Assembly: GCA_040753435.1 (NCBI GenBank)
Contig: JBFMEN010000058.1
Span: 18,817-82,816, forward strand
From: Candidatus Omnitrophota bacterium
GTDB lineage: Bacteria; Omnitrophota; Gorgyraeia; Zapsychrales; JANLHA01
Reading direction: 5' to 3'
DNA: 64,000 bases
In this document: positions 2,717 to 22,124 of the stretch, in pieces
How the letters are laid out: every line of letters starts with the position of its first letter
Numbering within the stretch: position 1 is the first letter of the stretch
Program-made: the position numbers and the translations under genes
The notes under the pieces: model-generated
The model's input: only the letters and a program-made list of their open reading frames with translations
Databases searched by the model: none
Told to the model about the DNA's origin: nothing

Positions 2717-2896
2717 ATGGAGAGGATGTTAAGAGGAATCGCAGGCTTTTTTATTTTGGCTTCCGTGGTCTTAGCCGTAACGATCCATCCGGCCTGGTTA
2801 TGGTTTACCGGTTTTGTGGGTTTAAACCTTTTGCAGTCATCAATTACCAACTGGTGTCCTATGATGTGGTTTTTAAGGCGGATTGGTGTCAAGTGA
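2717..2896 (+). CDS. DUF2892/YgaP-like small inner-membrane protein (59 aa), absent from the ORF track
   Basis: ATG at 2717 runs to TGA at 2894-2896. Translation is MERMLRGIAGFFILASVVLAVTIHPAWLWFTGFVGLNLLQSSITNWCPMMWFLRRIGVK: two TM helices, then the hallmark NWCP…(F/L) motif of DUF2892. It falls just below the track's 60-aa cutoff. The antisense 2689..2892 ORF is probably spurious. Confidence 0.55.
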   Translation: MERMLRGIAGFFILASVVLAVTIHPAWLWFTGFVGLNLLQSSITNWCPMMWFLRRIGVK

Positions 2897-3030
2897 TGGA
2901 ATCAAAAAGAGCCTCTTTTTAAATAGATTCTTTCAGAAATTTTCAGCTTTTTCAGGTCGCTCTGATATCTCGCCGTTGTTTTCGATCTCCTTAATTTTAA
3001 CACTACATGTAAGTATAATTACGTATTGAC

Positions 3031-3046
3031 ACACTATATATAGTGT
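3031..3046. promoter_or_regulatory. NrdR box (NrdR repressor binding site) upstream of nrdDG
   Basis: ACACTATATATAGTGT is a perfect 16-bp palindrome matching the published NrdR-box consensus acaCwAtATaTwGtgt. It lies ~60 nt upstream of the nrdD start. A TATAAT hexamer sits at 3015-3020 and a degenerate palindrome TACATGTA at 3004-3011. Confidence 0.7.
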
Positions 3047-3107
3047 GTATGATGTTATTTGTTCTTGCTCATATTTTTTTCCATTTTTTTATTAAAAGGA
3101 GGTTCCG

Positions 3108-5216: not shown

Positions 5217-5899
5217 GCGGTTTTCAAAAAATTTCGCTCATTGATTATCCCGGCAAAATTTCGGCAGTGGTTTTTACCCAAGGCTGTAATTTTCGCTGCC
5301 CTTTTTGCCATAATGCCCATCTGGTTTTGCCTTCACTTTTCCGGGAGTCACTGTCTGAGGAGGAAATCATCGGTTTCCTGGCTTCAAGGACGGGGAGACT
5401 TCAGGGTGTTGTAATTACCGGCGGAGAACCCACTCTCCAGAATGATTTAAAAGATTTTATTAAAAAAATCAAGGTCATGGGTTATGCAGTGAAGCTTGAT
5501 ACCAATGGAAGCAGGCCGTTCATTCTTGAAGAACTGATCCGGCAAAAGCTCGTTGATTTTGTAGCCATGGATGTCAAAGCCCCCATTGAACGGTATAGGG
5601 AAGTCTCTGGCGTTAATGTTAATCCGGATTTTATTAAAAAGAGCATTGAATTGCTCATTAATTCCGGATTGCAGTACCAATTCCGGACTACCTTTACCAA
5701 ACCGCTTTTAAATGAAGTCGATCTTTCGGGTATCATGTCTCTAATCGGGCAAGGTGCCAAAAATTTTTGTCTCCAGCCTTTTGTTCCCCAGGAGAGCATT
5801 CTTGACGATACGCTGCTGGACAAAGCACAGTATCAGGATGAAGAATTCAACCTGTTGCGGAAATGCTGTGAGGAGACGATTGAGGCCTTGGCAGGGTAA
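5207..5899 (+). CDS. nrdG: Anaerobic RNR activating protein (radical SAM)
   Basis: Carries the CNFRCPFCHN (CxxxCxxC) cluster near the N-terminus and GGEPTL. It overlaps nrdD by 10 nt. Size is 230 aa. Confidence 0.85.
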   Translation: MRIGGFQKISLIDYPGKISAVVFTQGCNFRCPFCHNAHLVLPSLFRESLSEEEIIGFLASRTGRLQGVVITGGEPTLQNDLKDFIKKIKVMGYAVKLDTNGSRPFILEELIRQKLVDFVAMDVKAPIERYREVSGVNVNPDFIKKSIELLINSGLQYQFRTTFTKPLLNEVDLSGIMSLIGQGAKNFCLQPFVPQESILDDTLLDKAQYQDEEFNLLRKCCEETIEALAG

Positions 5900-9778: not shown

Positions 9779-10765
9779 ATGGATTTGACTACAGTGTATA
9801 TGGGGCTTAATTTAAAGAACCCTTTAGTAGTTTCATCGTCCCCACTGACAAAAGAGTTCGATAACTTCAAAAAATTGGAAGATGCCGGTGTTTCAGCCAT
9901 TGTCTGTCATTCCATTTTTGAAGAGCAGATCTCCGAGGAAATCCGGGAACTTAACCGCAATCTTATTAATGGTACGGAGAGTTTTGCGGAAGCGTTAAGT
10001 TATTTTCCAGAGCCCCAGGAATTCAAGCTGGGACCGGATGATTATCTTGAAATGATACGAAAGGCAAAAGCGCAATTAAGCATTCCTGTGATTGGAAGCC
10101 TGAACGGACATACTGCCGGAGGATGGGTAGATTATGCCAGAAAGATTGAAGAGGCCGGGGCTGACGCAATTGAACTGAATGTTTTCTTTCTGCCGACGAG
10201 GGTTGAGACAACTCCGGATGATGTTGAGCGCAATTATGAAAAGATCGTTCATGATGTCAAGGCCAATGTAAAGATCCCGGTTGCCGTCAAAATGTCCCCT
10301 TACTTCAGCGCGCTGGCGAACATGGCGAAATCTCTTGTGGACGAGGGGGCCGATGCCCTGGTCCTTTTTAACCGGTTTTATCAACCGGATATCGATATTG
10401 AGACGCTGGAAGTTGATCCCAAAGTTATGTTAAGCACGCCATATGATTTGCTCCAGCCGCTTCGCTGGATCGGCATTCTTTATGGCCAGGTGAACGCCAG
10501 TTTCGCCGCAACCGGGGGAATTCATACCGCCCGGGATCTCATTAAAGTGATTATGGCAGGCGCCGATGCAGGAATGATGTGCTCGGCATTATTGGAGAAT
10601 GGAATCCGGCATGCCGCAACAGTGTTGAAGGAATTGAGCGAGTGGATGACCCGCCACGATTATGATTCCGTAAGGGGTATGAAAGGTGTTATGAGCCAGC
10701 AGAAATGCGCCCATCCGGAAGCCTTTGAACGCGCAAATTATATGAAGGTGCTTCAGAGTTATTAA
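9779..10765 (+). CDS. Dihydroorotate dehydrogenase-like (PyrD-family) protein
   Basis: DHOD/DHPD TIM-barrel signatures are present (…NPLVVSSSPLT…, KIPVAVKMSPY, FNRF…P, ATGGIHTARD). It lies directly downstream of PFOR. Confidence 0.6.
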   Translation: MDLTTVYMGLNLKNPLVVSSSPLTKEFDNFKKLEDAGVSAIVCHSIFEEQISEEIRELNRNLINGTESFAEALSYFPEPQEFKLGPDDYLEMIRKAKAQLSIPVIGSLNGHTAGGWVDYARKIEEAGADAIELNVFFLPTRVETTPDDVERNYEKIVHDVKANVKIPVAVKMSPYFSALANMAKSLVDEGADALVLFNRFYQPDIDIETLEVDPKVMLSTPYDLLQPLRWIGILYGQVNASFAATGGIHTARDLIKVIMAGADAGMMCSALLENGIRHAATVLKELSEWMTRHDYDSVRGMKGVMSQQKCAHPEAFERANYMKVLQSY

Positions 10766-10909
10766 GTTACATCTTTTTACACGCGTTACACCAGCGGCAA
10801 AGATCCAATAATTAAAGAAGAAGATGCTGAATCGTATCTGGAATTTGCTTCCTTGAATTATTTCAAGGAGTGGGGCAGGTACGGTCGCAGTAATTTAAAC
10901 GTTATGACA

Positions 10910-10940
10910 GGCGGGTTCCCAAGACCCGCCCTTCTTGTTG
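10910..10940 (+). terminator. Putative rho-independent terminator downstream of the por/DHOD-like unit
   Basis: GGCGGGT-tcccaag-ACCCGCC forms a 7-bp GC-rich stem, followed by a CTTCTTGTTG U-rich tract. Confidence 0.4.
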
Positions 10941-11047
10941 TGGGAAAAAACCTGATTTGAAAATGATCTTGAAAATTTTGCCTGATGCTTAAGAAGATAA
11001 AGAGTTTGTGTTAAAATGAACGCATACTTACAGAGAAAGAAGGGCCC

Positions 11048-13297
11048 ATGTCTCAGCGTTTTCGGCGGGAGATGCTTTCATTTCTGTTAGGTTTTTCCGC
11101 GATCATCATACAGACAATATTATTGCGCGTTTTCCAGACGGTATTTTATGGAAATGAGCTTTCCTATGCTGTTCTTTTGGGGTTCTGGCTTTTATGGGTC
11201 TCTTTTGGGAGTTTTCTTGCGACCCTTGTTTTTTCCAGCAATAAAGCGCCCGGCTCTCTTTGCATTTTATCATTCCTTGCCCTGGCCATGTCCGCGCCGG
11301 CTGTTATTTTCGGCGTCCGTTTTATTCATCCCGTCCTGAATATTTCTCAAGGAGAAATGATCGGCGTTCTGCCCATGGTTATTTCCGCGTTACTGGTAAC
11401 GGCGCCGGTGGGTTTTATTGTCGGCGCTATTTTTGTTTTGTTATGCCTGCAAAGTGGGCGATCTGAAGATTCAAAAGGGCTGGATCCTTCTTTCGTTTAC
11501 TTTCATGAATCTTGCGGCAGCGCGATAGGCGGCGCATTGGTGTCATTGATCTTGTTGCGTCTTTTGACCCCTGTCAGGAGCATGTTATTGTTATCGACCT
11601 TGATGGTTGCCGTCATTTTTGTATCATTGAAAAAAATGGAGGGCATCAAATGGGTAATGATCGCCGTTATATTTTTTCTGGCAAGTTTTCTGATATTGGA
11701 CTTTACTGTTGATCTCGATTTTCTTTCACAAGAGAAGCAATGGCCTTATGGTAAACTTGTGGCCGCTGAAGATTCTCCTTATGCCGGCATTGCCGTTGTC
11801 GAACTGGAAGGAGCGATGAGCGTTTTTCAGAATGGCGTGTTAAGCTTCACGACGAATGATTTTCTTTCCGCGGAAGAAAATGTCCACTTTCCATTGCTTG
11901 TGTATCCGGATCCGCAACGTGTCCTGTTAATAGGAGGCGGGCTTGGAGGTGAAATAGAAGAAATCCTCAAGCATCCGGACGTTTTGCTGGATTATGTGGA
12001 AATTGACCGGGAGATGGTCGATGTGGTGAAACTTTATTTGCCGAGGCCGGAATTTCTTAAGAATCCAAGGGTTCGGATTTATTATCAGGATCCAAGAAAT
12101 TTTATCAGAACAACATCGTCGATATATGATGTGGTGATCGTGAACGCCGGGGATCCTTTGACGGCGGGAACGAACAGGTTTTACACTCTTGAATTTTTGA
12201 CGGAACTGGATCGGGTTCTTGCGGTCGGCGGAATCGCCGGCTTTCGTGTTTCTTCTTCCGAGAATTATTTAAGCGACGAAAATTTATTATTTCTCCGGAC
12301 ATTATTTTCCACCTTTAAAAAAGTTTTCCCCGAAGTCCGTTCCATTCCCGGAGCAACCCATACTTTTCTGGTTTCGAATCTTGAAGATCGTATCGTTTTG
12401 GATGAAGACCAGCTTTCAAGTCAGCTCGCTATTCGCCAAATCAACAATCGATATGTTAATGAAAATACGCTTCCGTTTATTTTAGATGAGCGGCGGATTC
12501 AACAGATGGAAAAACTGTTGAAGTCAGAAGAAGGCCTGATCAACCGCGACCTTTTTCCCCGCGGCTATTTGTTTAATATTCTTTTGTGGTCGACTCATTT
12601 TAACGATGGTCTCAAGAAATTAGTCGTTTCTGTCCAGGCAACGCCCTCCTGGGCGTTAATTGCAATTGTTTCCATGATCTTGCTATCCGCCGGTTTTTTC
12701 TCGGCGAAAAAAAACCGTACCGGTGGAATAGATCTCGCTGTTACTGTTACAGGTTTTTCTGAAATTGTTTTTGAAATTGTTGTGATCCTGTCATTTCAAT
12801 CGCTTTACGGAATTGCTTACGAAAAGATCGGTCTGATTCTGGCGTCTTTTATGCTCGGACTGGTCGCCGGGGCGAGAAAATCCGCTTTTATGAATGCGGG
12901 CGACAAAGAGGAACTCATTGCCGTGTTCAGAAAACTTCAATTTGGAATTATAATTTATCCGCTTCTGTTGCCTGTCATTTTTGTCATATTCAGGGATATG
13001 AGGACAGCGCAAATGTTACCGTCGGTATTCATGTTTCTTTTCACGCTGATTCCGTTTATTGCCGGATTTTTAGGAGGAGCTCAGTATCCCGTAGCCATCG
13101 CCTTGAAGAAAAAAATAGCCGGTGAAACCGAAATGAAGAGCGCCGGATTTCTTTACGCGCTTGATGTTTTGGGAGCGGCCCTGGGCGCACTTCTAACCGG
13201 TGTTTTCTTGATTCCTCTCTTTGGAATTACCGCTGTTTGTGTTCTCTGCTCTTTCATGAGCGCCATCGTTTATTTATTTATCCCTGGAAAAAAGTAG
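11048..13297 (+). CDS. Polytopic membrane protein with an internal spermidine-synthase-like (SAM aminopropyl/methyltransferase fold) domain
   Basis: About 6 TM helices at the N-terminus. A central region carries the SpeE-like GGGLGGE…DYVEID…DVVIVNAGDP signature. Further TM helices follow at the C-terminus. Confidence 0.55.
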   Translation: MSQRFRREMLSFLLGFSAIIIQTILLRVFQTVFYGNELSYAVLLGFWLLWVSFGSFLATLVFSSNKAPGSLCILSFLALAMSAPAVIFGVRFIHPVLNISQGEMIGVLPMVISALLVTAPVGFIVGAIFVLLCLQSGRSEDSKGLDPSFVYFHESCGSAIGGALVSLILLRLLTPVRSMLLLSTLMVAVIFVSLKKMEGIKWVMIAVIFFLASFLILDFTVDLDFLSQEKQWPYGKLVAAEDSPYAGIAVVELEGAMSVFQNGVLSFTTNDFLSAEENVHFPLLVYPDPQRVLLIGGGLGGEIEEILKHPDVLLDYVEIDREMVDVVKLYLPRPEFLKNPRVRIYYQDPRNFIRTTSSIYDVVIVNAGDPLTAGTNRFYTLEFLTELDRVLAVGGIAGFRVSSSENYLSDENLLFLRTLFSTFKKVFPEVRSIPGATHTFLVSNLEDRIVLDEDQLSSQLAIRQINNRYVNENTLPFILDERRIQQMEKLLKSEEGLINRDLFPRGYLFNILLWSTHFNDGLKKLVVSVQATPSWALIAIVSMILLSAGFFSAKKNRTGGIDLAVTVTGFSEIVFEIVVILSFQSLYGIAYEKIGLILASFMLGLVAGARKSAFMNAGDKEELIAVFRKLQFGIIIYPLLLPVIFVIFRDMRTAQMLPSVFMFLFTLIPFIAGFLGGAQYPVAIALKKKIAGETEMKSAGFLYALDVLGAALGALLTGVFLIPLFGITAVCVLCSFMSAIVYLFIPGKK

Positions 13298-13390
13298 AAA
13301 TCCGTCTATAAATCAATACCTTCCGATAATATTGTTTCATGAAGGATGCCGTATAATTATTTTGAATAAAAATAAGAAGGAGCAGGCCGA

Positions 13391-14965
13391 ATGAAAGCGA
13401 GAAGGATCCTTGCAATTGGAATTGTGGCGTCTATTTTGTTAAGCCTTCCGCTGTTAGCGGCGCTTTTTATCGGCGAGCATTGGCGCCTTTTTTCATTTGT
13501 TCCTTTTGATATTTTTGATTGGTTGAGCAGGGTTATTCCCGGATACGTCATTACCGTTGTCATTGATGCGATGGTGCGTTTTATCGCGTTTTTTAATGTC
13601 GGACCTACGGATATAGCGGCGAAGATTATTGAACAATTGATGGGTATCGGTATTTTTATTTTTTTATTGGCCATCATCGGGTTTTTAAATACATGGGGAG
13701 TCATTCGTTTTTCGAAAAAAACCTTCTGGATTGGATTATGCTCAGGTCTTTTTTTATCATTTGCCTTGATTCCAATTCAATTGTTTCTGCGGTCTCCGAT
13801 GAGTGAAAATTTCTCGACCGCGTTTGCCCTGGTGATATGGGCCATCGTGCATGCTTTCTTTGTCCGACAAATCATTTCAGTCCAGAAACCGTTAACATGG
13901 TTGGCAGGATTGACGGGCTTTTCTGTATTGCTGGCGGGTACACTGATGATCGCGGGAAGGGCAATTCCGGCGGGTCCCGAAGGTTTAGCAATGGCAGACA
14001 GGCCTTTGAATGAGGTGCGCCCTTCAACAGAGGCTTTTGGAGTCATGAAAGCGGCCGCCTCGGCAGCGCAACGTTCCGGGATTTTCCCCGTTCCCGGAAC
14101 CAGAGAGGAAATCACGCCCAATGAAAAATTTTTCCGCATTGATATCAACACCCTGCCTCCCAGAATTAATCTTGGCAAATGGAAGGTTCGCGTTGAAGGC
14201 CTTTTTACCCGTGCCCGCGACCTTGCATTTGAGGACCTGATGAAGTATCCGGAAGTGACAGTAGCGGCGACTCTTTCCTGTATTTCCAATCCTGTTGGAG
14301 GGGACTTGATCAGCACCGGATTCTTTACCGGGGTCCGTTTGATTGATGTGCTTAAAGACCTTGGAATTCGAAAGGAAGCGAAGGCATTGGAGATCAGGGC
14401 CGAGGACGGTTATTATGAAACGGTAGTGTACGAGGACATGATCGATCCGCGTACACTCTTGGTTTACGGACTCAACGGAAAAACATTGTCGGTTGAACAA
14501 GGGTTTCCTCTCCGTATTTTTATTGCCAATCGTTATGGGATGAAGCAGCCGAAATGGATCACGCAGATTAAGGCCGTTGAAACTATTGATGAGGGATATT
14601 GGGTGGAAAGAGGATGGAGCTTTGAAGCGCATCCTCAAACAGTATCCGTTATTGATATTATCGTAAAAACCGCTCAATCTGACGGCACAATTCCGATCGG
14701 AGGGATAGCGTGGGCCGGTGACAGAGGGATCCAGAAGGTCGAAATTCAGATTGACGGGGGGGAGTGGACTGAGGTTAAACTCCTGAATCCGCCGCTGAGT
14801 CCGCTTGCATGGGTTTTATGGCGATATGACTGGCCATTTCAGCCAGGAAGACATACCTTTCGCGTCAGAGCTGTAGATGGAACCGGCAAAATACAGGCTG
14901 AAAATCGAAGCGATCCTCATCCCGCCGGTGCTACCGGATATCATCAAATCGAAATGACGTTTTAA
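13391..14965 (+). CDS. Membrane-anchored molybdopterin-dependent oxidoreductase (sulfite-oxidase / MsrP-YedY family catalytic domain)
   Basis: The N-terminal ~200 aa are hydrophobic TM helices. The C-terminal domain carries Moco-oxidoreductase signatures (GLNGKTLSVEQGFPLRIFIANRYGMKQPKWITQIKAV… and a following Ig-like dimerisation-type segment). Confidence 0.55.
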   Translation: MKARRILAIGIVASILLSLPLLAALFIGEHWRLFSFVPFDIFDWLSRVIPGYVITVVIDAMVRFIAFFNVGPTDIAAKIIEQLMGIGIFIFLLAIIGFLNTWGVIRFSKKTFWIGLCSGLFLSFALIPIQLFLRSPMSENFSTAFALVIWAIVHAFFVRQIISVQKPLTWLAGLTGFSVLLAGTLMIAGRAIPAGPEGLAMADRPLNEVRPSTEAFGVMKAAASAAQRSGIFPVPGTREEITPNEKFFRIDINTLPPRINLGKWKVRVEGLFTRARDLAFEDLMKYPEVTVAATLSCISNPVGGDLISTGFFTGVRLIDVLKDLGIRKEAKALEIRAEDGYYETVVYEDMIDPRTLLVYGLNGKTLSVEQGFPLRIFIANRYGMKQPKWITQIKAVETIDEGYWVERGWSFEAHPQTVSVIDIIVKTAQSDGTIPIGGIAWAGDRGIQKVEIQIDGGEWTEVKLLNPPLSPLAWVLWRYDWPFQPGRHTFRVRAVDGTGKIQAENRSDPHPAGATGYHQIEMTF

Positions 14966-15014
14966 TTTGGAAGTCTTTTCCGAATTCCCCCCGGGTTTTT
15001 TATGGATTTGCCCC

Positions 15015-15088
15015 AGAAAATAGCGGAACTCCAATCATCAAAAAATGAATAATGTGTCTATGATATCTCACGAAAGGAGGTGGTGTTT
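15015..15088 (+). repeat. Conserved ~75-nt leader/promoter element, copy A, upstream of small acidic protein A
   Basis: Shares exact blocks AGAAAATAGCGG, TATGATATCT and CGAAAGG(A/G)GGTGGT with copy B at 16356-16430, in the same order and with the same spacing to the start codon. Confidence 0.6.
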
Positions 15089-15268
15089 ATGGATAAGAGA
15101 AAAGATCCCAAGGCAAAACCTGTCAAAGAAATTAAACAGAAATCGCTGGAATGCGAGCCGGATGATGATGATTGCGAACCTTTTTTTGATACCGAAATTA
15201 CGGAAGTTAAAGAGGAATATCATAAAGAATACCACGAGCATGATGATTATGAGGATTTGGAAGAATAA
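15089..15268 (+). CDS. Small (59 aa) basic-N / acidic, Tyr-rich-C protein, paralog A
   Basis: AAAGGAGG RBS sits 8 nt upstream of the ATG. Translation is MDKRKDPKAKPVKEIKQKSLECEPDDDDCEPFFDTEITEVKEEYHKEYHEHDDYEDLEE, whose composition and layout mirror paralog B. Confidence 0.5.
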   Translation: MDKRKDPKAKPVKEIKQKSLECEPDDDDCEPFFDTEITEVKEEYHKEYHEHDDYEDLEE

Positions 15269-15305
15269 ATAAAAATTATTATTTTAACAACAAAGGAGGT
15301 TAACC

Positions 15306-16253
15306 GTGCCAGATGTAGTGAGTCTTATTTCATGGGGAGCGATTTTTGCTGGTGTTGTTTTGATCCTGGCGTTTCAATTTATGTTTTCAGTGCTTGATTT
15401 GGCCCTGGGACTTTCCAGGATTAAACCGGCGGAAAACGGAAAAGAGGCGGGAAAAGTTTTAAAAGGAACGGCCATCGGCTGGATTATCGGGAGTTTGGTT
15501 GCCGTTTTTCTGGGAACATGGGTCACTGGAAGTTTAACGGGAGATATTTCTCCGTTTGATGCCATGCTTCATGGTGTTGTGGTATGGGGATTGACGGTGG
15601 TGATTGGAGCCTTTATTATTTCAAGCGCCGCCGGGACAATGCTTGGGGGAGCCATGGGCCTGTTGATGAGCAGCATTACTTCTGCCGCGCGTGCCGCACG
15701 CAAAGCGATTCACGGGGCGGTACCGCAAATTCAGGAATCGGTTCAGGAGAGAGGCGGGATTGAACAGCAATGGGCTAAGATGCGCTCTCAAATTGAAGAA
15801 ATTCTGAGAGAAACTGGAAAACCGGAACTTCAACCGGAGCACATGAAAGCCCAGGTTCAGGCGGAAGCGCAACGGACAAAGGCTCAGGGACAACAAGCAT
15901 CCCAGGACCCCCAGCAAATTCGTCAGGAATTGGAATCGGCTTTAAAAAGGATTCTGGAAGAAGGAGTTAAAACCACCCGTGGAGTTGACAAAGAAGCAAT
16001 AGCCAATGTCATCGAAAAACAAACGCATATGAGCCATGAGAAGGCTCAATCCACGGCTGATCGATGGGTATCGACTTACGAGCAGACAATTCCCAAGGTC
16101 CAGGAAAAGGTTGAGATGGCCAAGGAAAAAGCGGAAGAGGCTGCACAAAAGACTTCTGAAGTGGTCAGCAGTGCAGCGAAATGGTCCTTTGTGATGCTTT
16201 TTTTAACATTAATTATTGCCGCTTTAGGCAGTTGGGTCGGAACTTTAACCTGA
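15306..16253 (+). CDS. Membrane protein: 4 N-terminal TM helices, long charged Q/E/K-rich coiled-coil-like segment, C-terminal TM helix
   Basis: AGGAGG RBS precedes a GTG start. The hydrophobic N-terminus (…AIFAGVVLILAFQFMF…GWIIGSLVAVFLGTWV…VVVWGLTVVIGAFII…) is followed by a ~170-aa hydrophilic helical region and a terminal WSFVMLFLTLIIAALGSWVG helix. No family was recognised. Confidence 0.5.
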   Translation: MPDVVSLISWGAIFAGVVLILAFQFMFSVLDLALGLSRIKPAENGKEAGKVLKGTAIGWIIGSLVAVFLGTWVTGSLTGDISPFDAMLHGVVVWGLTVVIGAFIISSAAGTMLGGAMGLLMSSITSAARAARKAIHGAVPQIQESVQERGGIEQQWAKMRSQIEEILRETGKPELQPEHMKAQVQAEAQRTKAQGQQASQDPQQIRQELESALKRILEEGVKTTRGVDKEAIANVIEKQTHMSHEKAQSTADRWVSTYEQTIPKVQEKVEMAKEKAEEAAQKTSEVVSSAAKWSFVMLFLTLIIAALGSWVGTLT

Positions 16254-16355
16254 GACTGATATATAGCGGACAATTTCAGTTTAAGAAATCATGAATTGTC
16301 CGCTTTTTTATAATTTGTCAATGCCTCTTTGAAATTCGTTTTGGGGACTTTTAAT

Positions 16356-16430
16356 AGAAAATAGCGGCATGAGGAACATCACAAAATAATGTTTCGTGAA
16401 TATGATATCTGGCGAAAGGGGGTGGTCATA
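16356..16430 (+). repeat. Conserved ~75-nt leader/promoter element, copy B
   Basis: See copy A; the same three conserved blocks occur in the same order. Confidence 0.6.
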
Positions 16431-16574
16431 GTGGATAGAAAAAATGAAAGGCAGAAGGAAAATAAGAAGAAAAAGAAAGAGGTTTCCGATGACTATGAGG
16501 ATTGGAAAGCTGTTTATGGGAATGAAAGCTATGCTAATCCCGATGATTTTGCTGAATATGAAGAGGAAGAGTAG
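16431..16574 (+). CDS. Small basic-N / acidic, Tyr-rich-C protein, paralog B
   Basis: GTG at 16431 is preceded by a GGGGGTGG RBS-like block. Translation is (M)DRKNERQKENKKKKKEVSDDYEDWKAVYGNESYANPDDFAEYEEEE. The track's upstream ATG at 16389 lies inside the conserved leader and lacks an RBS. Confidence 0.45.
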   Translation: MDRKNERQKENKKKKKEVSDDYEDWKAVYGNESYANPDDFAEYEEEE

Positions 16575-16675
16575 GAACTTAAGAATTTAAACGATCCGTT
16601 TTCCGTATCAACCTGCTAAATCGTCAGCTTGGCGATAAAATTTTGCGTGATGAAATTTGCTTTTCGCTGGCAGCC

Positions 16676-16705
16676 GGTCATTTAAAAAATGACCAAAGAT
16701 TTTTT
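16676..16705 (+). terminator. Putative terminator after paralog B
   Basis: GGTCATTT-aaa-AAATGACC forms an 8-bp stem followed by AAGATTTTTT. Confidence 0.35.
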
Positions 16706-16868
16706 CCACGTAAAGCGCTGCGGCACAAGCCGTAAATTTCAAAAGAGTTTTTAAGAATTCTCGACGTGTCATAATATGATTTTTATTAGATTAGATTGCA
16801 GGACGCATGACACAAGACACATGAAAAAATTGGGTTTTGTGTCCTGTGTCGTGAGTCCTGTCGCTTGT

Positions 16869-17846
16869 TCACTTCCATATCCCCGGAATTTTTTCACCGC
16901 AGTTTCCGCAACGGCCTTCAACGATATTATTTTGTAAAATCCTGAATCCCGCCCGCTCAATTAATATTTTTTTGCAAGAAGGACAATACGTGCTGTTGCC
17001 CGCATGGCCCGGAATGTTTCCGACATAAACGTATTTAAGACCGGTTTCTCTGCCGATCTCCCATGCCCTGTCGAGAATTGAGGTCGGCGTGGGCGGGAGA
17101 TTTTTGAGCTGATGCATCGGCCAGAATTTAGAAAAGTGAAGAGGGGTATCTTCACCGCAGTAATCCTTTACCCATTTGCACAGGTCTCTGATATCGGTTT
17201 CACGGTCGTTCCATGTCGGGACAACCAAATTAGTGATTTCGACCCAAACATGATTTTTTTTCATAGTGATGATGGCATCTTGCACTGGTTTGAGACTGGC
17301 CTGACTCATTCGTTGATAGAATTGGTCAGTGATGCCTTTCAAGTCAACATTGGCTGCATGAACATGAGGGCATAAATCAATCAGCGGTTGTTGATTAATA
17401 TAACCGGCAGTGACAAGGACGTTCAGTATTCCTGAGATATTTGCTAGTTTGCTTGTATCGTAGGTGTATTCATAAAAAACCACAGGATCCGAATAGGTGT
17501 AGGCGATGGAGCGACAGCGTTCGGATAAGGCGGCCTGGACAGTTTGTTCCGGAGATAAATTATAATTGGTGAGCGCTTCAGGGGGTTGCTGGGAAATCTG
17601 CCAGTTTTGACAGTACTTGCAATGCAAGTTACATCCGGCTGTAGCAATTGAAAACGAAGAAGAGCCGGGCAGGACATGAAAAAGAGGCTTTTTTTCAATA
17701 GGGTCCACATGAATGGAGCAAGGGCTTCCGTATACGAGGGTTTGCAGTTTTCCGTCAAGGTTCAGCCGTACTCTGCAATCCCCACGCTGTCCGGGTTTTA
17801 ACCGGCAAGCCCTTGGACAAAGGAGACATTCAATCGTTTTCTTCAT
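16869..17846 (-). CDS. AmmeMemoRadiSam-system-type radical SAM enzyme (AmrS / PFL-activase-like)
   Basis: The N-terminus CLLCPRACRLKPGQRGDCRVRLNLDGKLQTLVYG…HVDPIEKKPLFHVLPGSSSFSIATAGCNLHCKYCQNWQIS follows the AmrS family pattern. It has a radical SAM CxxxCxxC cluster plus an extra N-terminal Cys cluster and a C-terminal Zn-ribbon-like CPSC…CGNC. Confidence 0.7.
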   Translation of the reverse strand: MKKTIECLLCPRACRLKPGQRGDCRVRLNLDGKLQTLVYGSPCSIHVDPIEKKPLFHVLPGSSSFSIATAGCNLHCKYCQNWQISQQPPEALTNYNLSPEQTVQAALSERCRSIAYTYSDPVVFYEYTYDTSKLANISGILNVLVTAGYINQQPLIDLCPHVHAANVDLKGITDQFYQRMSQASLKPVQDAIITMKKNHVWVEITNLVVPTWNDRETDIRDLCKWVKDYCGEDTPLHFSKFWPMHQLKNLPPTPTSILDRAWEIGRETGLKYVYVGNIPGHAGNSTYCPSCKKILIERAGFRILQNNIVEGRCGNCGEKIPGIWK

Positions 17847-19323
17847 GGTCGACCGTGCGCCAGTATTTAGCAGGGGAAGGAGTAATACCTTCCTCTTCGA
17901 GTTTTTTCAGGACATCCTGAATGTTACTATAAGCTTTAGTATCTTCGTTGACAATGGTTTTCCGGACCGGTGTCTTCCCGGTAATCGAATAAATGGAATT
18001 TGCGACAACAAAAATGAGCAGGATTACAGAAAAACCCGTCGCCAGTATAAAAAAGTTATTCTGAATCCGGTTGCTTTTTAAGACTGAATCTGAATGGCAA
18101 TGGTCACAATAAAAACATTCCGCGCAATCCGTGCAGGGATAAGAAGATGATGAACGTTTTTTTAAAATTTTAAACTGCGAGAACAGCGCGAGAACAGCGC
18201 CGAAAGGGCATAGATATTTGCACCAGAAACGTTGATAAAAAAAAGAGGCGCCCATAACTGCCGCCGCCAGAAGCCATGCCCCGATAGACCGAGTCCCGTT
18301 AAATACGGTCAGATAAACCTCGATCGCGCCTAAACCAGAATGTGCGAACCAGAGACTTGAACTCAGGATCAGGATCAGTGAAACATATTTAATCCAGCGA
18401 CAGATAGTATCTGTTTTAAGATTTGGGCTGGCTGTGCGCTTGAAGAGCTTTTTATTGATATGAAAAAGAAGTTCTTCGACGAAAGCAAACGGGCAGATTC
18501 CGGAGCAATAAATACGTCCGAGAAGAAAAGCCGTAATGAACGCCCCAAATAGCAGCAGGTAAAGGTCAGGCTGGGATGTCAGGGCCGGGAGCTGCCCCAG
18601 AACGGTTCCGGCCACATGCATGAGCGAAAGCATGTTGCCCGTGATAAGACCGATGATGATGAATCCTGAGGACAATGTTAACCAGCGGAGAATCGGATTT
18701 TTTTTCAGGCAACCAACAACAGCCAGAATAAAAATTAATGTCAAGGCCGGGATTAACAGGAGTTTGTCGGGTTTAAGGATACGAGTTCGGTTGATGGATT
18801 CGTTTTGAATTTTTCTTGATAAAAGGGAAGGCAAAACTTTTGTGGCCGCTTGATTGATTGTTTCAAGCACGGCCCGGCTTGTTATGGTAGCGCCGCTAAT
18901 TCCATCGATATCGTCCGAAAGGGTTAAGGGACTTTCAATATTTTTACCAATTAATTGTTGCATGAAATCAGGAAGGGAGGATGTCAATCCCGGAGTTTCA
19001 TGGTGCTGTAAGATTTGTGCGGTGATGATTTTTCCATTTGGGTCAATCACAACAACCAGATGGATTGGACCTGCATAACCGGAGACGCCGGTGACAATAT
19101 CTGAAGTGAAAAAATAATATCCGATCAGATTATGATCCTTGTCAAATACCTGATAACAGGGGAAATCTGTGGCGGCCGGCCGGGTAAAAACTGCCTGGGG
19201 GAAAAAGTCTCCAGTGCCTGGACGGGGAATATTTTCCCGGGTTTTGGTTGAAGTGAACCTGGAAATCGTCCCGAAAGAAACGATAATCAAGAAAAGGATC
19301 AGGAAAAGACGATAAGGTTTCAT
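17830..19323 (-). CDS. NosR/NapH-like membrane redox protein: periplasmic FMN-binding domain + TM helices + polyferredoxin (CxxxCP) domain
   Basis: A signal/anchor (MKPYRLFLILFLIIVSF) is followed by an FMN_bind signature (DGISGATITSRAV), multiple TM helices, then CSGICPFAF, CKYLCPFGAV and CTDCAECFYCDHC iron-sulfur motifs. It overlaps the downstream AmrS gene by 17 nt. Confidence 0.6.
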   Translation of the reverse strand: MKPYRLFLILFLIIVSFGTISRFTSTKTRENIPRPGTGDFFPQAVFTRPAATDFPCYQVFDKDHNLIGYYFFTSDIVTGVSGYAGPIHLVVVIDPNGKIITAQILQHHETPGLTSSLPDFMQQLIGKNIESPLTLSDDIDGISGATITSRAVLETINQAATKVLPSLLSRKIQNESINRTRILKPDKLLLIPALTLIFILAVVGCLKKNPILRWLTLSSGFIIIGLITGNMLSLMHVAGTVLGQLPALTSQPDLYLLLFGAFITAFLLGRIYCSGICPFAFVEELLFHINKKLFKRTASPNLKTDTICRWIKYVSLILILSSSLWFAHSGLGAIEVYLTVFNGTRSIGAWLLAAAVMGASFFYQRFWCKYLCPFGAVLALFSQFKILKKRSSSSYPCTDCAECFYCDHCHSDSVLKSNRIQNNFFILATGFSVILLIFVVANSIYSITGKTPVRKTIVNEDTKAYSNIQDVLKKLEEEGITPSPAKYWRTVDHEEND

Positions 19324-19423
19324 GTGTAATTATTTTAAGCACAGGGGTTTAAGAATGCAATGGAAAAAGAGGAGATTGATGATATAATTTAGCCTGTAAT
19401 TTCAATCATTTAATCGTATATTA

Positions 19424-20212
19424 ATGAATAAAAATTTTAGTTACATTTATGGCCCCGTTTATTCCTGGCGATTGGGAGTGTCTTTGGGGATTGATCCAAT
19501 CGGTCAGAAAAGGAAATATTGCAATTTTAACTGTGTTTATTGTCAGTTGGGGAAGACCCCTGTGCTGACAGGAAAGCGCAGCGTTTTTGTCCCTGCCCGT
19601 GCGGTCCTGGATGAAGTTAATGCGCTTGACCCCAATCTCAAACTGGACTATCTGACTTTCTCCGGTCGCGGGGAACCTACCCTGGCAAACAATCTGGGCG
19701 AAATGATTGATCTGTTGAAGCAACACCGACGGGAGAAAATCGCCGTCATTACAAACTCCGGATTAATGGGAAATCCCGGGGTCCGTTCGGATCTTTTAAA
19801 AGCGGATTTTGTCCTGGCAAAACTTGATGCCTGCGAGGAGAAATCTTTTGAAACGGTAGACAGGCCGTTGCCTTCTCAAACGCTGTCATCGATTGTTGAT
19901 GGCCTGAAGATGTTTTCCAAAGAGTTTAAAGGGAAGCTGGCATTACAGATGATGTTTATCGACCTGAACAAACATTGTGCGCCAGAAATGGCCAGAATAG
20001 CTGAGGAGATCGATCCGGATGAAATTGAATTGAATACTCCTCTTCGCCCCTGTGCCGTCCGGCCTCTTTCCAGTGAAGAAATGCTTGAGATTAAATCATT
20101 TTTTCATCGCTCAACCGTGATGGTTTATGAGCGGGAAAAGAAAGACGTTACGGCCATGGATGAAAAACAGACTGTGCGGCGTCATGGAAAATATCTGGAA
20201 GAAAATGAGTAA
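19424..20212 (+). CDS. Small radical SAM protein (262 aa), family not resolved
   Basis: GPVYSWRLGVSLGIDPIG…CNFNCVYCQLG has a CxxxCxxC cluster at residues ~33-40, and GEPTL is also present. It reads directly into the histidine kinase gene with a 2-nt gap. Confidence 0.6.
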   Translation: MNKNFSYIYGPVYSWRLGVSLGIDPIGQKRKYCNFNCVYCQLGKTPVLTGKRSVFVPARAVLDEVNALDPNLKLDYLTFSGRGEPTLANNLGEMIDLLKQHRREKIAVITNSGLMGNPGVRSDLLKADFVLAKLDACEEKSFETVDRPLPSQTLSSIVDGLKMFSKEFKGKLALQMMFIDLNKHCAPEMARIAEEIDPDEIELNTPLRPCAVRPLSSEEMLEIKSFFHRSTVMVYEREKKDVTAMDEKQTVRRHGKYLEENE

Positions 20213-20214
20213 GG

Positions 20215-20922
20215 ATGGAAGAATATTCCCCGGAAAAAATTGTTGAGCTTGAAAACAAGGTAAGATCGTTGCCCCAGCGGATTATTGAGGTCCAGGAGGC
20301 CGAACGGCATCGGATCGCGAAAGAGATCCACGATGATCTGGGACAGTCATTGGCCGCGCTCAAGATGCTCATACAGTCCAGCGTTCTTCCGGAATATATT
20401 ACTGATGCATCTAACCGCAGGGCTTATCAGCGCGTCGTTGATTATATCGATGAGATTATCGAAAAGACGCGGGACATCGCCACTGCCCTGCGGCCCAAGA
20501 TCATTGAAACTATGGGATTGACCCGGGCAATTAAAAAGATGCTGGCCGGGTTTCGTAAAAATAAAGGACTTCATATCAAAGCCCAGGTTGGTAATCTCAA
20601 TGACATCAAGTTCGAAAGTTCTTCCATTAATCTGTATCGTATCGTTCAGGAAGCCCTGGCCAATTTGTATCATCATGCAGAAGCGACAAGTGTTGAAGTG
20701 CTCTTCCGGCGAGGGAAACAATCTTTGACCATGACCATTAAAGATAATGGTAAGGGTTTTTTCCCACATAAGGCATCAAAAGGAACAGGTCATGCGAGTA
20801 AACACGGGCTGTCGACCATGTATGAAAGGGCCAGGCTTTTAGGGGGAGAGCTGGAGATTGAGTCTGAGCCGGGAAAAGGGACTCTGATCCGTCTGCACAT
20901 TCCAATTTCGATTAAAGAGTAG
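20215..20922 (+). CDS. Cytoplasmic sensor histidine kinase, HisKA_3/NarX-type, no sensor or TM domain
   Basis: A coiled-coil N-terminus leads to an H-box (ERHRIAKEIHDDLGQSLAALKM) and an HATPase_c domain (N, G1, G2 boxes). It is only 235 aa. Confidence 0.8.
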   Translation: MEEYSPEKIVELENKVRSLPQRIIEVQEAERHRIAKEIHDDLGQSLAALKMLIQSSVLPEYITDASNRRAYQRVVDYIDEIIEKTRDIATALRPKIIETMGLTRAIKKMLAGFRKNKGLHIKAQVGNLNDIKFESSSINLYRIVQEALANLYHHAEATSVEVLFRRGKQSLTMTIKDNGKGFFPHKASKGTGHASKHGLSTMYERARLLGGELEIESEPGKGTLIRLHIPISIKE

Positions 20923-20930
20923 GGGACAGT

Positions 20931-21587
20931 ATGGATGAAAAATCCATTAAAATCATTCTGGCCGACGATCACTTGATGTTTCGCGCGGGTTTAAAGACCT
21001 TGATCGAGCGCTCAGACCGTTTTCTTGTTGTCGATGAGGCAAGCAATGGCGAAGAGCTCCTGGCAAAACTGAAAGGGGGGCGATGCGATCTCGTCGTTAT
21101 GGACCTTTCGATGCCAAAAATGGGAGGCTTGGAGGCGCTCAGCAAGATTGCGGCAAAGTATCCGCGAATCAGGGTCCTTGTGCTGACAATGCAGAAAGAC
21201 ACGCATTATTTTCATCGCACCATGTCGACAGGAGCCTGCGGATATGTTTTGAAAGATGACGCCTTTGAGCAGCTTGTCGAGGCGATCGATATTATTTTGA
21301 CTGGTAAAGAGTTTGTTTCTCCATCGATCAGATCATTGCTTGACGAGCAAAGCGGCGAGACGGTTAAAGAAGAGAAGGTTCTCCCGCCTGTTGATTTGCT
21401 CACGAAGAGGGAGCGCCAGGTGTTGAAACTTATCGCTTCCGGGGATGCCAATAAAAATATCGCCAAACAGCTTGGTATCAGCATTCGGACGGTGGAAGTC
21501 CATCGTTCAAACCTGATCAGGAAACTGGGAATCAAAACCACGGCGGGTTTGGTTAAATATTCGATGGCGGAAGCGTTTAAAGAATAA
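20931..21587 (+). CDS. NarL/LuxR-family response regulator (REC + HTH)
   Basis: The REC domain begins IKIILADDHLMFRAGL…DLVVMDLSMP. The C-terminal LuxR HTH is LTKRERQVLKLIASGDANKNIAKQLGISIRTVEVHRSNLIRKLG. Confidence 0.85.
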   Translation: MDEKSIKIILADDHLMFRAGLKTLIERSDRFLVVDEASNGEELLAKLKGGRCDLVVMDLSMPKMGGLEALSKIAAKYPRIRVLVLTMQKDTHYFHRTMSTGACGYVLKDDAFEQLVEAIDIILTGKEFVSPSIRSLLDEQSGETVKEEKVLPPVDLLTKRERQVLKLIASGDANKNIAKQLGISIRTVEVHRSNLIRKLGIKTTAGLVKYSMAEAFKE

Positions 21588-21683
21588 GCGTTGCTTGTAT
21601 TTAATATGAATTTTTTCTTTTTTTATCGTCAGACTTGTTTATACTAATAACATAATATTAAAATATAACACGTTACAAAAGAT

Positions 21684-22124
21684 ATGAGTGAAGAAAATTC
21701 ATCCCAGGCCCATCAGGATAATCAGAAAGCGGAACAGCCAAACGAACAGAAGCCCGAAGGTCTCCGTAAAATTTTGAATTCGTTTGACGAGAAACCGGGC
21801 GATTCTGGACCTGACGAGAGCGGGGCACAGCCTCCGAAGGAAGAAGATTCTCCTGAAGAGCTGCCTTTACCGCCTCTGAAAGAGGAGACGCCCCAGGCTG
21901 AGGCTGTTTCTGAAACCACGGCTCCTGAAATCAAAGAACAGCACGAGAAGACAGGATCGAGCGATGAACTCTCGCCGGCCATACCCCCTGATTCCAGGGA
22001 GGGGGACGCTTCCCGGATTGATCCTGAACAAATCATTTCTGAAGCGATGAAAAAGCTTGATAAATTACTCGAAGAGATCAAAAAGAATGAGTTTAAGCCT
22101 GATGAGCACGTTAATGAAGGGTGA
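21684..22124 (+). CDS. Acidic, Pro/Glu/Ser-rich low-complexity protein (likely intrinsically disordered)
   Basis: An ORF with strongly biased composition (EEDSPEELPLPPLKEETPQAEAVSETTAPEIKE…). No domain was recognised, and its coding status rests on ORF length and context only. Confidence 0.35.
   Translation: MSEENSSQAHQDNQKAEQPNEQKPEGLRKILNSFDEKPGDSGPDESGAQPPKEEDSPEELPLPPLKEETPQAEAVSETTAPEIKEQHEKTGSSDELSPAIPPDSREGDASRIDPEQIISEAMKKLDKLLEEIKKNEFKPDEHVNEG

Follow-up and report, generated by a model that had tools for sequence, protein, structure and literature searches.

A duplicated leader and small-gene unit on either side of a membrane-protein gene in a Candidatus Omnitrophota genome

Two paralogous units around a membrane-protein gene

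The stretch analysed here, a 64-kb window of a Candidatus Omnitrophota MAG, contains a gene for a 315-residue membrane protein that stands between two small open reading frames (ORFs), each preceded by a non-coding leader. The features of the locus are collected in Table 1; the annotation of the small ORFs is that of the NCBI record of this MAG.

Table 1. Features of the locus, with positions in the window.
Feature	Position	Strand	Description
Leader 1, non-coding 5′ region of small ORF 1	15015..15088	+	53/75 columns identical to leader 2 (71%)
Upstream box AGAAAATAGCGG, copy 1	15015..15026	+	12-mer otherwise only at 16356; 10/12 bases kept in the L034 copy, AAAAAAAAGCGG
TATGATATCT, copy 1	15059..15068	+	putative −10 TATGAT at 15059-15064, 5/6 against consensus
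Shine-Dalgarno region of small ORF 1, CGAAAGGAGGTGGT	15071..15084	+	GGAGG 7 nt before ATG 15089; block kept in leader 2 and L034
Small ORF 1, 59 aa, AB1650_07335, MEW5895550.1	15089..15268	+	ATG start 15089; NCBI-annotated; Lys-rich N-terminus, acidic Tyr/His-rich C-terminus
Shine-Dalgarno of membrane-protein gene, AAAGGAGGT	15292..15300	+	within the 37-nt gap 3′ of small ORF 1
Membrane protein, 315 aa, AB1650_07340, MEW5895551.1	15306..16253	+	N-terminal helical membrane domain with SWGAIFAG, hydrophilic helical middle, C-terminal membrane helix
Intrinsic terminator 3′ of membrane-protein gene	16265..16310	+	stem GCGGACAATT / AATTGTCCGC, then U-run
Leader 2, non-coding 5′ region of small ORF 2	16356..16430	+	box 16356-16367, TATGATATCT 16401-16410, Shine-Dalgarno block 16413-16426
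Small ORF 2, 47 aa, AB1650_07345, MEW5895552.1	16431..16574	+	GTG start 16431; NCBI-annotated; paralogue of small ORF 1
Terminator-like hairpin GGTCATTT..AAATGACC with T-run, 3′ of small ORF 2	16676..16704	+	from terminator scan; folds

An earlier note on this DNA had described two leaders that share exact blocks in the same order and at the same distance from a start codon. Our alignment agreed with this in coordinates, blocks, order and spacing, with an identity of 71% counted from the first block up to the start codon. The blocks identical in both leaders were AGAAAATAGCGG, CATCA, AAAAT, GTG, TATGATATCT, CGAAAGG-GGTGGT (15071-15084 in leader 1, 16413-16426 in leader 2) and TGGATA at the start codon; the first begins 74 and 75 nt 5′ of the start codons of leaders 1 and 2, and 20 nt separate the end of TATGATATCT from the start codon in both. 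Identity in the 30 columns 5′ of the leaders was 10/30. A search of the window for the 26-nt TATGATATCTNNCGAAAGGRGGTGGT, with at most 3 mismatches tolerated, found the two leader sites only (expected 0), the exact 12-mer AGAAAATAGCGG likewise had 2 sites, both in the leaders, and no ORF ran in a consistent frame across both leaders. The homology continued past the leaders: blastn aligned 14998-15197 with 16339-16527 (64% over 203 columns, E 6e-15) and, as a second segment, 15194-15263 with 16438-16509. Since the similarity extends into the ORFs, the two units are paralogues.

Small ORF 1 reads MDKRKDPKAK...HDDYEDLEE and small ORF 2 reads MDRKNERQKENKKKKKEVSDDYEDW...EYEEEE, with MDKRK and MDRKN as their starts. 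The claim that both join a basic N-terminus to an acidic C-terminus was borne out by net charges of +5 over the first 18 residues of each and of −18 (ORF 1) and −11 (ORF 2) over the remainder. Both are preceded by a full Shine-Dalgarno sequence at optimal spacing, and in both the own frame had the best codon log-odds of the six (0.46 bit per codon for ORF 1). The DDYED unit is shared at the DNA level (15242-15263 versus 16488-16509, 86%), and small ORF 2 is shorter, with an apparent internal deletion relative to ORF 1. With composition correction off, the two proteins aligned at about 28% identity (E about 0.05-0.08); with the correction on, the pair gave no match at E≤5. The leaders, at 71% nucleotide identity, are thus better conserved than the proteins, as had been noted. 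The small-ORF regions carry no residual similarity to the bodies of membrane-protein genes, and are therefore not decayed fragments of such genes.

We found no credible homologue of either small protein among 5.8 billion proteins, and a word-indexed search returned the self-matches only. When ORF 1 was compared exhaustively by phmmer with 1.84 billion representatives, the one match besides ORF 1 itself was a 1130-aa repeat protein aligned in 9 stretches, which was rejected as repeat-inflated. Pfam gave no family at E≤1 for the small proteins, hence none of the dehydrin or LEA families, and PADLOC and PHROGs gave none; an NCBIfam match to a beta-lactamase model (E 0.22) was set aside as chance. 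tblastn with both proteins found nothing in any of the fetched loci of membrane-protein homologues. The statement of the earlier note that no described family was recognised for the small proteins or the module is consistent with all family and homologue searches, and a literature search on the module found nothing specific. The small proteins would be lineage-restricted and probably disordered, and in our best explanation they are real gene products.

No hairpin or terminator was found in the gap between small ORF 1 and the membrane-protein gene (15266-15310), so the two are probably co-transcribed. The terminator after the membrane-protein gene folded at −18.5 kcal/mol (z = −4.64), with 0/200 shuffles as good. 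Past small ORF 2 lie radical SAM genes (16869-17846 and 19424-20212), and their proximity raises the idea that the two small paralogous ORFs, with similar N-termini and variable C-termini, are RiPP-like precursors, in which a conserved leader peptide and variable acidic cores would be processed by a neighbouring radical SAM enzyme. ORF 1 also contains a CEPDDDDCEP stretch, which we take to recall Cys-Asp thioether motifs loosely. However, the closest of these radical SAM genes is in convergent orientation past the terminator-like hairpin and encodes an enzyme of the AmmeMemoRadiSam system (TIGR04337, 374 bits against a cut-off of 220). Moreover, no peptidase, exporter or SPASM-type maturase was found among the genes examined (9779-22124), and the Cys motif is absent from ORF 2, which has neither the Cys nor the His of ORF 1. 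We regard a RiPP-like role as highly improbable.

Promoter-like elements and RNA structure in the leaders

We searched the leaders for a −10 hexamer similar to TATAAT in which positions 2 and 6 are A and T, respectively, and for a TTGACA-like −35 hexamer 16-18 nt 5′ of it. TATGAT, which is 5/6 identical to TATAAT and has both of these bases, is present in both leaders (16401-16406 in leader 2) and on this consensus match would be a sigma-70-type −10 box. At 3026-3053 the window also has a canonical TTGACA-N16-TATGAT promoter, which shows that the organism uses −10 boxes of the TATGAT type. The candidate −35 hexamers of leader 1, CATCAA and TCATCA, 17-18 nt 5′ of TATGAT, are weak and absent from the promoter-scan list; in leader 2 the scan gave ATCACA-17-TATGAT at 16378-16406, with 9/12 matches overall and 4/6 in the −35 hexamer. 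By eye, no alternative sigma consensus (ECF GGAAC..CGTT, sigma-54, SigB, SigH, FliA) was conserved in both leaders. If TATGAT is the −10 box, AGAAAATAGCGG lies at about −56 to −45 and may be an activator or UP-like site. The poor −35 together with this conserved box at about −50 suggests activator-dependent transcription.

The earlier note had also allowed for a structured 5′ UTR. In such a reading, a riboswitch, an RNA thermometer or a hairpin masking the Shine-Dalgarno sequence would control translation of the small ORFs; AUCU(C) can indeed pair with the ribosome-binding GGAGG/GGGGG around a CGAAAG loop in both copies, and UAUGAU is able to pair near the start codon. The folding analysis argued against this. 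Fold energies did not beat those of shuffles, with z-scores of −0.24, −0.03, −1.36 and −0.16 for the window leaders and +1.46 and −0.23 for a third copy (L034, below), the pairing registers were not alike between copies, and RNAalifold on the three leader copies returned 0 consensus pairs. Rfam gave 0 matches at gathering scores for the whole window and 0 at E≤1 for 14900-16750. Furthermore, most of the blocks would not be transcribed if TATGAT is the −10 box. A structured 5′ UTR is accordingly very unlikely, and z-scores near zero, the lack of consensus pairs and the lack of an Rfam match together suggest that the leader most likely acts as DNA and as a ribosome-binding site.

We also considered whether the blocks could derive from a mobile repeat (MITE or IS), as its ends or as fragments of it, since two copies lie 1.3 kb apart; nothing more speaks for it. 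Neither inverted repeats nor target-site repeats flank the copies, the position relative to the start codon is fixed in both copies, and the 64-kb window holds 2 copies, a third being found there neither with an nhmmer leader profile nor by pattern searches. The near-match TCTGATATCT at 2961 belongs to the upstream region of an unrelated gene, nrdD. Scans of GTDB representative genomes and JGI metagenomes with the exact pattern GAAAATAGCGG-N30-36-TATGATATC returned 9 and 19 stretches from genome and metagenome contigs, respectively, all unrelated. Most of these stretches were one conserved sequence from Aminicenantes-type contigs. A mobile repeat is hardly credible as the source of the blocks.

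A third leader copy and the membrane-protein family

The AF2 model of the membrane protein was all-helical, with helices at 10-38, 46-77, 83-138 and 244-314, the last of which takes in the hydrophobic C-terminus; the model is of low confidence (mean pLDDT 66, pTM 0.46). In Foldseek no PDB entry matched the model at an E-value under 1, and a PADLOC match to ZorA (21 bits) was disregarded, as it covered only the helical and partly low-confidence region 120-289. Homology searches found 42 homologues, 0 of them with a Pfam domain; 40 had E-values from 1e-62 to about 1e-14 and two were weaker. The closest, P0002, is 38% identical over 94% of the query. The family is marked by SWGAIFAG, GG(W/Y)VAGRL, MLHG, TGKPELQP and a C-terminal membrane helix, and W10, G11, A12, H89 and G90 are invariant in the homologue alignment (A2). 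On these motifs the window's protein is a clear member of an undescribed SWGAIFAG membrane-protein family, for which no relatives were found in Pfam, NCBIfam or the PDB. One member, from Pontibacter silvestris, is labelled 'PhnA-like protein'.

The neighbourhoods of the homologues offered a hint at function. A gene of the DUF2382/YsnF type lies directly 5′ of the homologue, on the same strand, in three loci (L002, L036, L037), and genes for Mn catalase (L036) and Pmp3 (L037) are also close by. These stress-gene-linked homologues are distant, at 31-35% identity, and a stress role of the module would be guilt by association. The leader and the small acidic ORFs were found neither at P0002 nor at homologues from other phyla. 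Among L001, L002 and L031-L033, one weak 33-aa candidate for a small acidic ORF adjoined a homologue (L033), and the window's protein is the sole family member seen with flanking small acidic ORFs.

A third, more diverged leader copy was found directly 5′ of a paralogous membrane-protein gene, P0016, in soil metagenome contigs (L034/L035). P0016 is 69% identical to AB1650_08720 of the source MAG, this type of paralogue is about 34% identical to the window's membrane protein, and the gene starts with MDREK, comparable to the starts of the small ORFs. The local alignment scores of L034 and L035 were 37 and 36, matched by 3 and 12 of 1000 dinucleotide shuffles. When the Shine-Dalgarno part was left out, the copy was still the top-scoring of 453 upstream regions (35 versus a mean of 17.7, sd 3.5), and the blocks are collinear in L034. 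A blind nhmmer search over 310 kb with the profile of the two leaders gave the L034 copy only 7.2 bits (E = 1.7), and its weight rests on its position exactly 5′ of a paralogue. The spacing between the CATCA and TGATA blocks is about 20 nt longer in L034, where TGATAGCT makes a poor −10, so that the promoter assignment is not cleanly transferable. An OmpR-type response regulator adjoins P0016 and is divergent from it; it would be a candidate for the activator. The nearest two-component pair in the window is of the HisKA_3/LuxR type and 4 kb off, and none adjoins the module. The earlier note had proposed a search for the leader in this genome and in relatives; a diverged copy was found 5′ of a paralogous gene in a related organism, and the window itself had no further copy. 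The copy at the paralogue lends support to a link between the leader and a particular set of genes.

The earlier note had further read the blocks as a sign of selection on discrete leader elements, which our statistics did not sustain. In column shuffles the clustering of identities into blocks was only marginally non-random (p = 0.056 for the sum of squared runs, p = 0.037 for the two longest runs), and the third copy did not retain the positions shared by both window copies significantly better than the others (Fisher p = 0.16). Both results would fit a neutral leftover of duplication, in which the likeness of the leaders reflects ancestry and incomplete divergence and ORF 2, or both ORFs, are dispensable or decaying by-products. 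It would agree as well with a homology that runs through leader and ORF alike, with the orphan status of both ORFs and with the shortened, apparently deleted ORF 2. Against it, both ORFs are intact, with equal charge polarity, complete Shine-Dalgarno sequences and the best score in their own frame, and the leader is still recognisable before a paralogue of about 34% protein identity, which neutral drift in a non-coding stretch would hardly explain. We therefore hold a neutral leftover to be unlikely.

Most homologues carry hydrophilic N-terminal tails of 20-65 residues, rich in D, E, H, Y and R (for example SDYDRNDYDRHDYDGRP in P0022 and PDHEVHEHDV in the P0023 group), whereas the window's protein has 8 residues before SWGAIF. 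This raises the possibility of gene fission, by which the small proteins would be free-standing versions of such tails that act on the membrane protein in trans. In line with it, the leader and an MD(R/K) start belong to the membrane-protein gene in L034 and to a small ORF in the window, and the best local match pairs EYHEHDDYE with EVHEHDVYE. However, the similarity to the tails was no better than that of composition-preserving shuffles (51/500 and 238/500 as good), the tails are rich in Arg but the small proteins in Lys, and ORF 1 and the membrane-protein gene lie in different frames with separate ribosome-binding sites. In addition, P0002 and P0015/P0016 are tail-less too, and neither the P0002 locus nor the P0016 contig yielded a small acidic ORF. 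Gene fission is on this evidence improbable. The same doubt attaches to a wider scheme, in which the small proteins would be detached, trans-acting acidic Tyr/His-rich tails, the leader would be the operator of one dedicated regulator, possibly the OmpR-type one adjacent to P0016, for both membrane paralogues and the free tails, and the whole would form a stress module of Omnitrophota; we consider it a long shot.

Proposed arrangement and comparison with known systems

We favour, with a probability of roughly 0.55, a duplicated promoter and small-gene unit whose leader acts at the DNA level, with two co-regulated units and small proteins that partner the membrane protein and are stress-induced. 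One unit of about 200 bp, comprising the promoter region, the Shine-Dalgarno sequence and the 5′ part of the small gene, would have been duplicated locally, thereby placing one copy on each side of the membrane-protein gene. Its non-coding part would be the regulatory 5′ region that characterises this lineage of membrane-protein genes and would work as DNA and ribosome-binding site rather than as folded RNA. The first unit would contain small ORF 1 and the membrane-protein gene and end at the 16265-16310 terminator, the second would contain small ORF 2 alone, and both are presumably co-regulated. The small proteins would be produced along with the membrane protein and most likely work jointly with it. 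As the membrane-protein family is embedded in general-stress clusters in other phyla, the module is most likely stress-induced.

If this is true, the leader would be a first candidate cis-regulatory signature for Omnitrophota, with a candidate set of co-regulated genes; to our knowledge these bacteria have no genetic system and their promoters are essentially unstudied. It would also tie the two disordered orphan proteins to a membrane-protein family that occurs in several bacterial lineages and is unstudied, and the DUF2382/YsnF-type neighbourhood in the three loci would give a handle on the function of that family.

Activator-dependent sigma-70 promoters, for example of the OmpR/PhoB type, have a good −10, a poor −35 and an activator site centred near −50. 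The leaders resemble them in TATGAT, in the weakness of the −35 and in a conserved 12-nt box some 45-56 nt 5′ of the putative start, and the OmpR-type regulator divergent from the third-copy gene is a further likeness. They differ in that direct-repeat half-sites at 10-11-nt spacing are not evident in the leaders, the distance from box to −10 differs by about 20 nt in L034, and no regulator adjoins the module in the window.

The small proteins are similar to hydrophilins, dehydrins and LEA proteins in their hydrophilicity (GRAVY −1.8 and −2.23), charge, probable disorder and Lys-rich segments, and in the stress-gene clusters around homologues of the neighbouring membrane protein; the Tyr-containing VYGNESYANP stretch of ORF 2 presumably recalls, loosely, the dehydrin Y-segment. 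Hydrophilins are defined by more than 6% glycine together with high hydrophilicity, and the small proteins have 0/59 (0%) and 1/47 (2%) glycine, which places them outside that definition. Their strict division into a basic N-terminal and an acidic C-terminal part is not a feature of these families either.

ElaB, YqjD and YgaM (DUF883) are tail-anchored, stress-associated proteins, and the membrane protein is like them in its helical hydrophilic domain with a C-terminal membrane anchor and in its association with stress genes, but has no Pfam match to DUF883 and has an additional N-terminal multi-helix membrane domain. Within its own SWGAIFAG family it is set apart by the missing N-terminal hydrophilic tail and by the flanking small acidic ORFs. 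Collectively, nothing points to a new mechanism: the feature is real and looks like an ordinary local duplication, and the present evidence is that of a small orphan gene duplicated locally with its promoter, a common origin of lineage-specific small genes.

Duplicated leader and small-ORF units

The earlier note had described a conserved leader in two copies, each 5′ of a small ORF with a Lys-rich N-terminus and an acidic C-terminus, on either side of a membrane-protein gene, and this observation proved correct. All of its shared blocks were found in both leaders at equal distances from the start codons. Between the beginning of the first shared block and the start codon, 53 of 75 aligned columns were identical, and in the stretch just 5′ of both leaders 10 of 30; clustering of the identities into blocks was marginally above that of shuffled columns (p = 0.04-0.06). 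A 26-nt pattern made up of TATGATATCT and the Shine-Dalgarno block matched only the two leader sites in the window with up to 3 mismatches (0 expected), and both exact occurrences of AGAAAATAGCGG in the window lay in the leaders. The window held 17 12-mers within 2 mismatches of AGAAAATAGCGG (8.1 ± 2.7 in shuffled sequence; 0 of 100 shuffles reached 17). Judged by position against the ORF list only, none beyond the two exact copies was leader-like before a gene start, and one (16300-16311, minus strand) was a terminator arm with its T-run.

Blastn revealed that the homology runs past the start codon (14998-15197 versus 16339-16527, 64% identity, E = 6e-15), and a second, off-diagonal segment paired the DDYED-coding stretches of ORF 1 and ORF 2. 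Since the leader similarity continues into the ORFs, with the DDYED segment in addition, the two units are paralogous, each a putative combination of an ORF with the promoter region and ribosome-binding site that precede it. They are explained most simply if a small orphan gene was duplicated locally along with its promoter and ribosome-binding site.

Both ORFs had features of genes. A near-perfect Shine-Dalgarno sequence (AAAGGAGGTG and AAAGGGGGTG) lay 7 nt 5′ of each start codon, and with codon log-odds trained on the long genes of the window the own frame was the best of six (0.46 and 0.39 bit per codon for ORFs 1 and 2, compared with 0.27 for the membrane gene). The leaders themselves are not coding, because a 1-nt indel shifts the frame of the shared blocks relative to the ORFs. 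As the earlier note had held, they were better conserved than the peptides: nucleotide identity was 71%, compared with 28% for the barely alignable proteins (E about 0.05-0.08 with composition correction off; no match detected with it on). ORF 2 differed from ORF 1 by an internal deletion and one additional DD(Y/F)-type unit. The DDYED-type unit occurred once in ORF 1 (15242-15263) and twice in ORF 2 (16488-16509 and 16542-16563), and ORF 1 also contained an internal repeat (ECEPDDDD versus EYHEHDDY, 15149-15172 and 15227-15250). Common to both was a charge polarity, net +5 over the first 18 residues and then strongly negative; the products may be described as bipolar, disordered proteins. They fell outside described families, as had been proposed: Pfam, PADLOC and PHROGs gave no matches and NCBIfam a chance match only, and no credible homologues were found among 5.8 billion clustered proteins. 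The sole other phmmer match to ORF 1, from an exhaustive search of 1.84 billion representatives, was a repeat protein (9 stretches) that we regarded as spurious.

In the source, an NCBI metagenome-assembled genome (MAG) labelled Candidatus Omnitrophota bacterium, the locus showed no evident tie to the flanking enzyme genes. The radical SAM gene on its 3′ side overlaps the end of the NosR/NapH-like gene by 17 nt. No hairpin was found in the 37-nt gap that separates ORF 1 from the membrane gene, and the latter is preceded by a ribosome-binding site of its own. This gap, the strong terminator 3′ of the membrane gene and the terminator-like hairpin 3′ of ORF 2 indicate two transcription units: one comprises ORF 1 and the membrane gene, the other only ORF 2.

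Positions of features in the window and at fetched loci (L-numbers)
Feature	Sequence	Position	Strand	Details
Small ORF before nrdD promoter	window	2718-2896		about 59 aa
Palindrome ACACTACATGTAAGTA	window	3000-3015		
TTGACA-N16-TATGAT promoter	window	3026-3053		5′ of nrdD
Palindrome ACACTATATATAGTGT	window	3031-3046		
nrdD	window	3108-5216		
nrdD radical SAM activase	window	5207-5899		
Polyamine aminopropyltransferase-like	window	11048-13297		749 aa; fused to multi-helix membrane domain; 5′ of locus
Sulfite-oxidase-type molybdopterin oxidoreductase	window	13391-14965		524 aa; multi-helix membrane fusion, hydrophobic N-terminal half; 5′ of locus
Leader 1	window	15015-15088		
ORF 1	window	15089-15268		AB1650_07335, MEW5895550.1; 59 aa; NCBI: hypothetical protein
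Membrane protein	window	15306-16253		AB1650_07340, MEW5895551.1; 315 aa; NCBI: hypothetical protein
Strong terminator	window	16265-16310		z = -4.6; 3′ of membrane gene
Leader 2	window	16356-16430		
ORF 2	window	16431-16574		AB1650_07345, MEW5895552.1; 47 aa; NCBI: hypothetical protein
Terminator-like hairpin	window	16676-16704		3′ of ORF 2
AmmeMemoRadiSam-system radical SAM	window	16869-17846	-	TIGR04337, 374 bits; 3′ of locus
NosR/NapH-like	window	17830-19323	-	FMN-binding and ferredoxin domains; 3′ of locus
DUF2382/YsnF-type	L002	4107-4967		
DUF2382/YsnF-type	L036	3070-3969		
DUF2382/YsnF-type	L037	2181-3917		
OmpR-type response regulator	L034	2-505	-	receiver domain and start of Trans_reg_C; cut by contig end
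OmpR-type response regulator	L035	2-472		as on L034

The membrane-protein family

We found 42 homologues of the window membrane protein, which define an undescribed family present in several bacterial lineages. Its members share the motifs SWGAIFAG, GG(W/Y)VAGRL, MLHG and TGKPELQP; after these come a hydrophilic, helical region and, at the C-terminus, a membrane helix. One subgroup, of about 217 aa, is without the long helical middle region. No relatives of the family were found in Pfam, NCBIfam or PDB, in line with the earlier note, which had recognised no described family for the module. The AF2 model was all-helical, of low confidence and without structural neighbours. Gene neighbourhoods varied across the family. 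At three independent loci (L002, L036 and L037) a DUF2382/YsnF-type gene lay directly 5′ of the homologue on the same strand, and genes for Mn catalase and DUF4142 (L036), Pmp3 (directly 3′ of the homologue on L037) and an ECF-type sigma factor were also found near homologues. By gene association only, these neighbours suggest a role in general stress.

A hydrophilic tail of 20-65 residues, rich in Asp, Glu, His, Tyr and Arg, forms the N-terminus of most homologues; it is variable in P0003, P0008, P0017 and P0020-P0039 (for example SDYDRNDYDRHDYDGRP and PDHEVHEHDV). Because most homologues have such tails and the window protein has none, the small proteins could be detached N-terminal tails of this family. 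This is possible but unsupported: alignments of small proteins with tails were no better than composition-preserving shuffles, no comparable small acidic ORFs were found beside homologues elsewhere, and the small-ORF regions yielded no traces of membrane-gene sequence.

A probable third leader copy

The same MAG encodes a paralogue of the window membrane protein (P0015, AB1650_08720), and a homologue 69% identical to it, P0016, is encoded on two contigs from soil metagenomes (L034 and L035). About 100 nt 5′ of the P0016 start codon were collinear with the window leaders, with AAAAAAGCGGCAT, TCATTA, AAATGAAATGTTT, TGTG, TTGATAGCT-ACGAAAGGAG and ATGGATCGT in order, and P0016 begins MDREK where the small ORFs begin MDKRK and MDRKN. 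Statistical support for this copy was moderate. Of 1000 dinucleotide shuffles, 3 and 12 reached the local alignment scores of 37 and 36, respectively. Out of 453 upstream regions, drawn from the window and every fetched locus, this one ranked first even with the Shine-Dalgarno sequence removed (35 versus a mean of 17.7, sd 3.5), ranks 2-5 coming from loci fetched for containing the search pattern. When 310 kb were searched blind with the two-leader profile, it scored only 7.2 bits (E = 1.7), and positions common to the window leaders were not significantly better retained in it (Fisher p = 0.16). We accepted it as a relative because it lies exactly where the paralogue's leader should be, and consider it quite probably real. 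P0016 shares only about one third of its residues with the window membrane protein; recognisable non-coding similarity despite this divergence suggests either that the leader is constrained or that it was copied from one locus to another at a later time. In this lineage, the duplicated 5′ region would then typify a stress-linked family of membrane-protein genes. The OmpR-type response regulator gene divergent from P0016 encodes a candidate regulator of that leader, nothing more.

Leaders as RNA or DNA elements

The similarity had been ascribed to selection on a shared regulatory region, either promoter/operator or structured 5′ UTR. A regulatory region is a reasonable inference, to which the third copy lends some further weight; the reading as a structured RNA was set aside. 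Compared with dinucleotide shuffles, folding was no better for the two leaders (z = -0.24 and -0.03), their parts 3′ of TATGAT (-1.36 and -0.16) or the third copy (+1.46 and -0.23). RNAalifold found no consensus pairs across the three copies, and where AUCU might pair with the ribosome-binding site, leaders 1 and 2 would do so in different registers. Rfam had no match over the window at gathering scores, or over the locus at E ≤ 1.

TATGAT, a 5/6 match to the -10 consensus, is also the -10 of a textbook TTGACA-N16-TATGAT promoter 5′ of nrdD; promoters of this type are thus evidently in use in the organism. Overlapping the nrdD promoter are two palindromes 31 nt apart, which we take to resemble NrdR boxes, and the long gap before it holds a small ORF (MERMLRGIAGFFILASVV...NWCPMMWFLRRIG) whose product is presumably a DUF2892-type small membrane protein.

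The leader -35 elements were weak: ATCACA in leader 2 (9/12 matches overall), which the promoter scan listed, and, in leader 1, CATCAA, which it did not list. About 20 extra nt lie between the CATCA and TGATA blocks of the L034 leader, and its TGATAGCT makes a poor -10, so that the promoter assignment carries over to this copy only in part. Taking TATGAT as the putative -10, AGAAAATAGCGG would lie between about -56 and -45. Promoters that depend on an activator typically combine a good -10 and a poor -35 with a conserved box further upstream, and from this pattern we infer that the leaders are candidate promoters of that kind.
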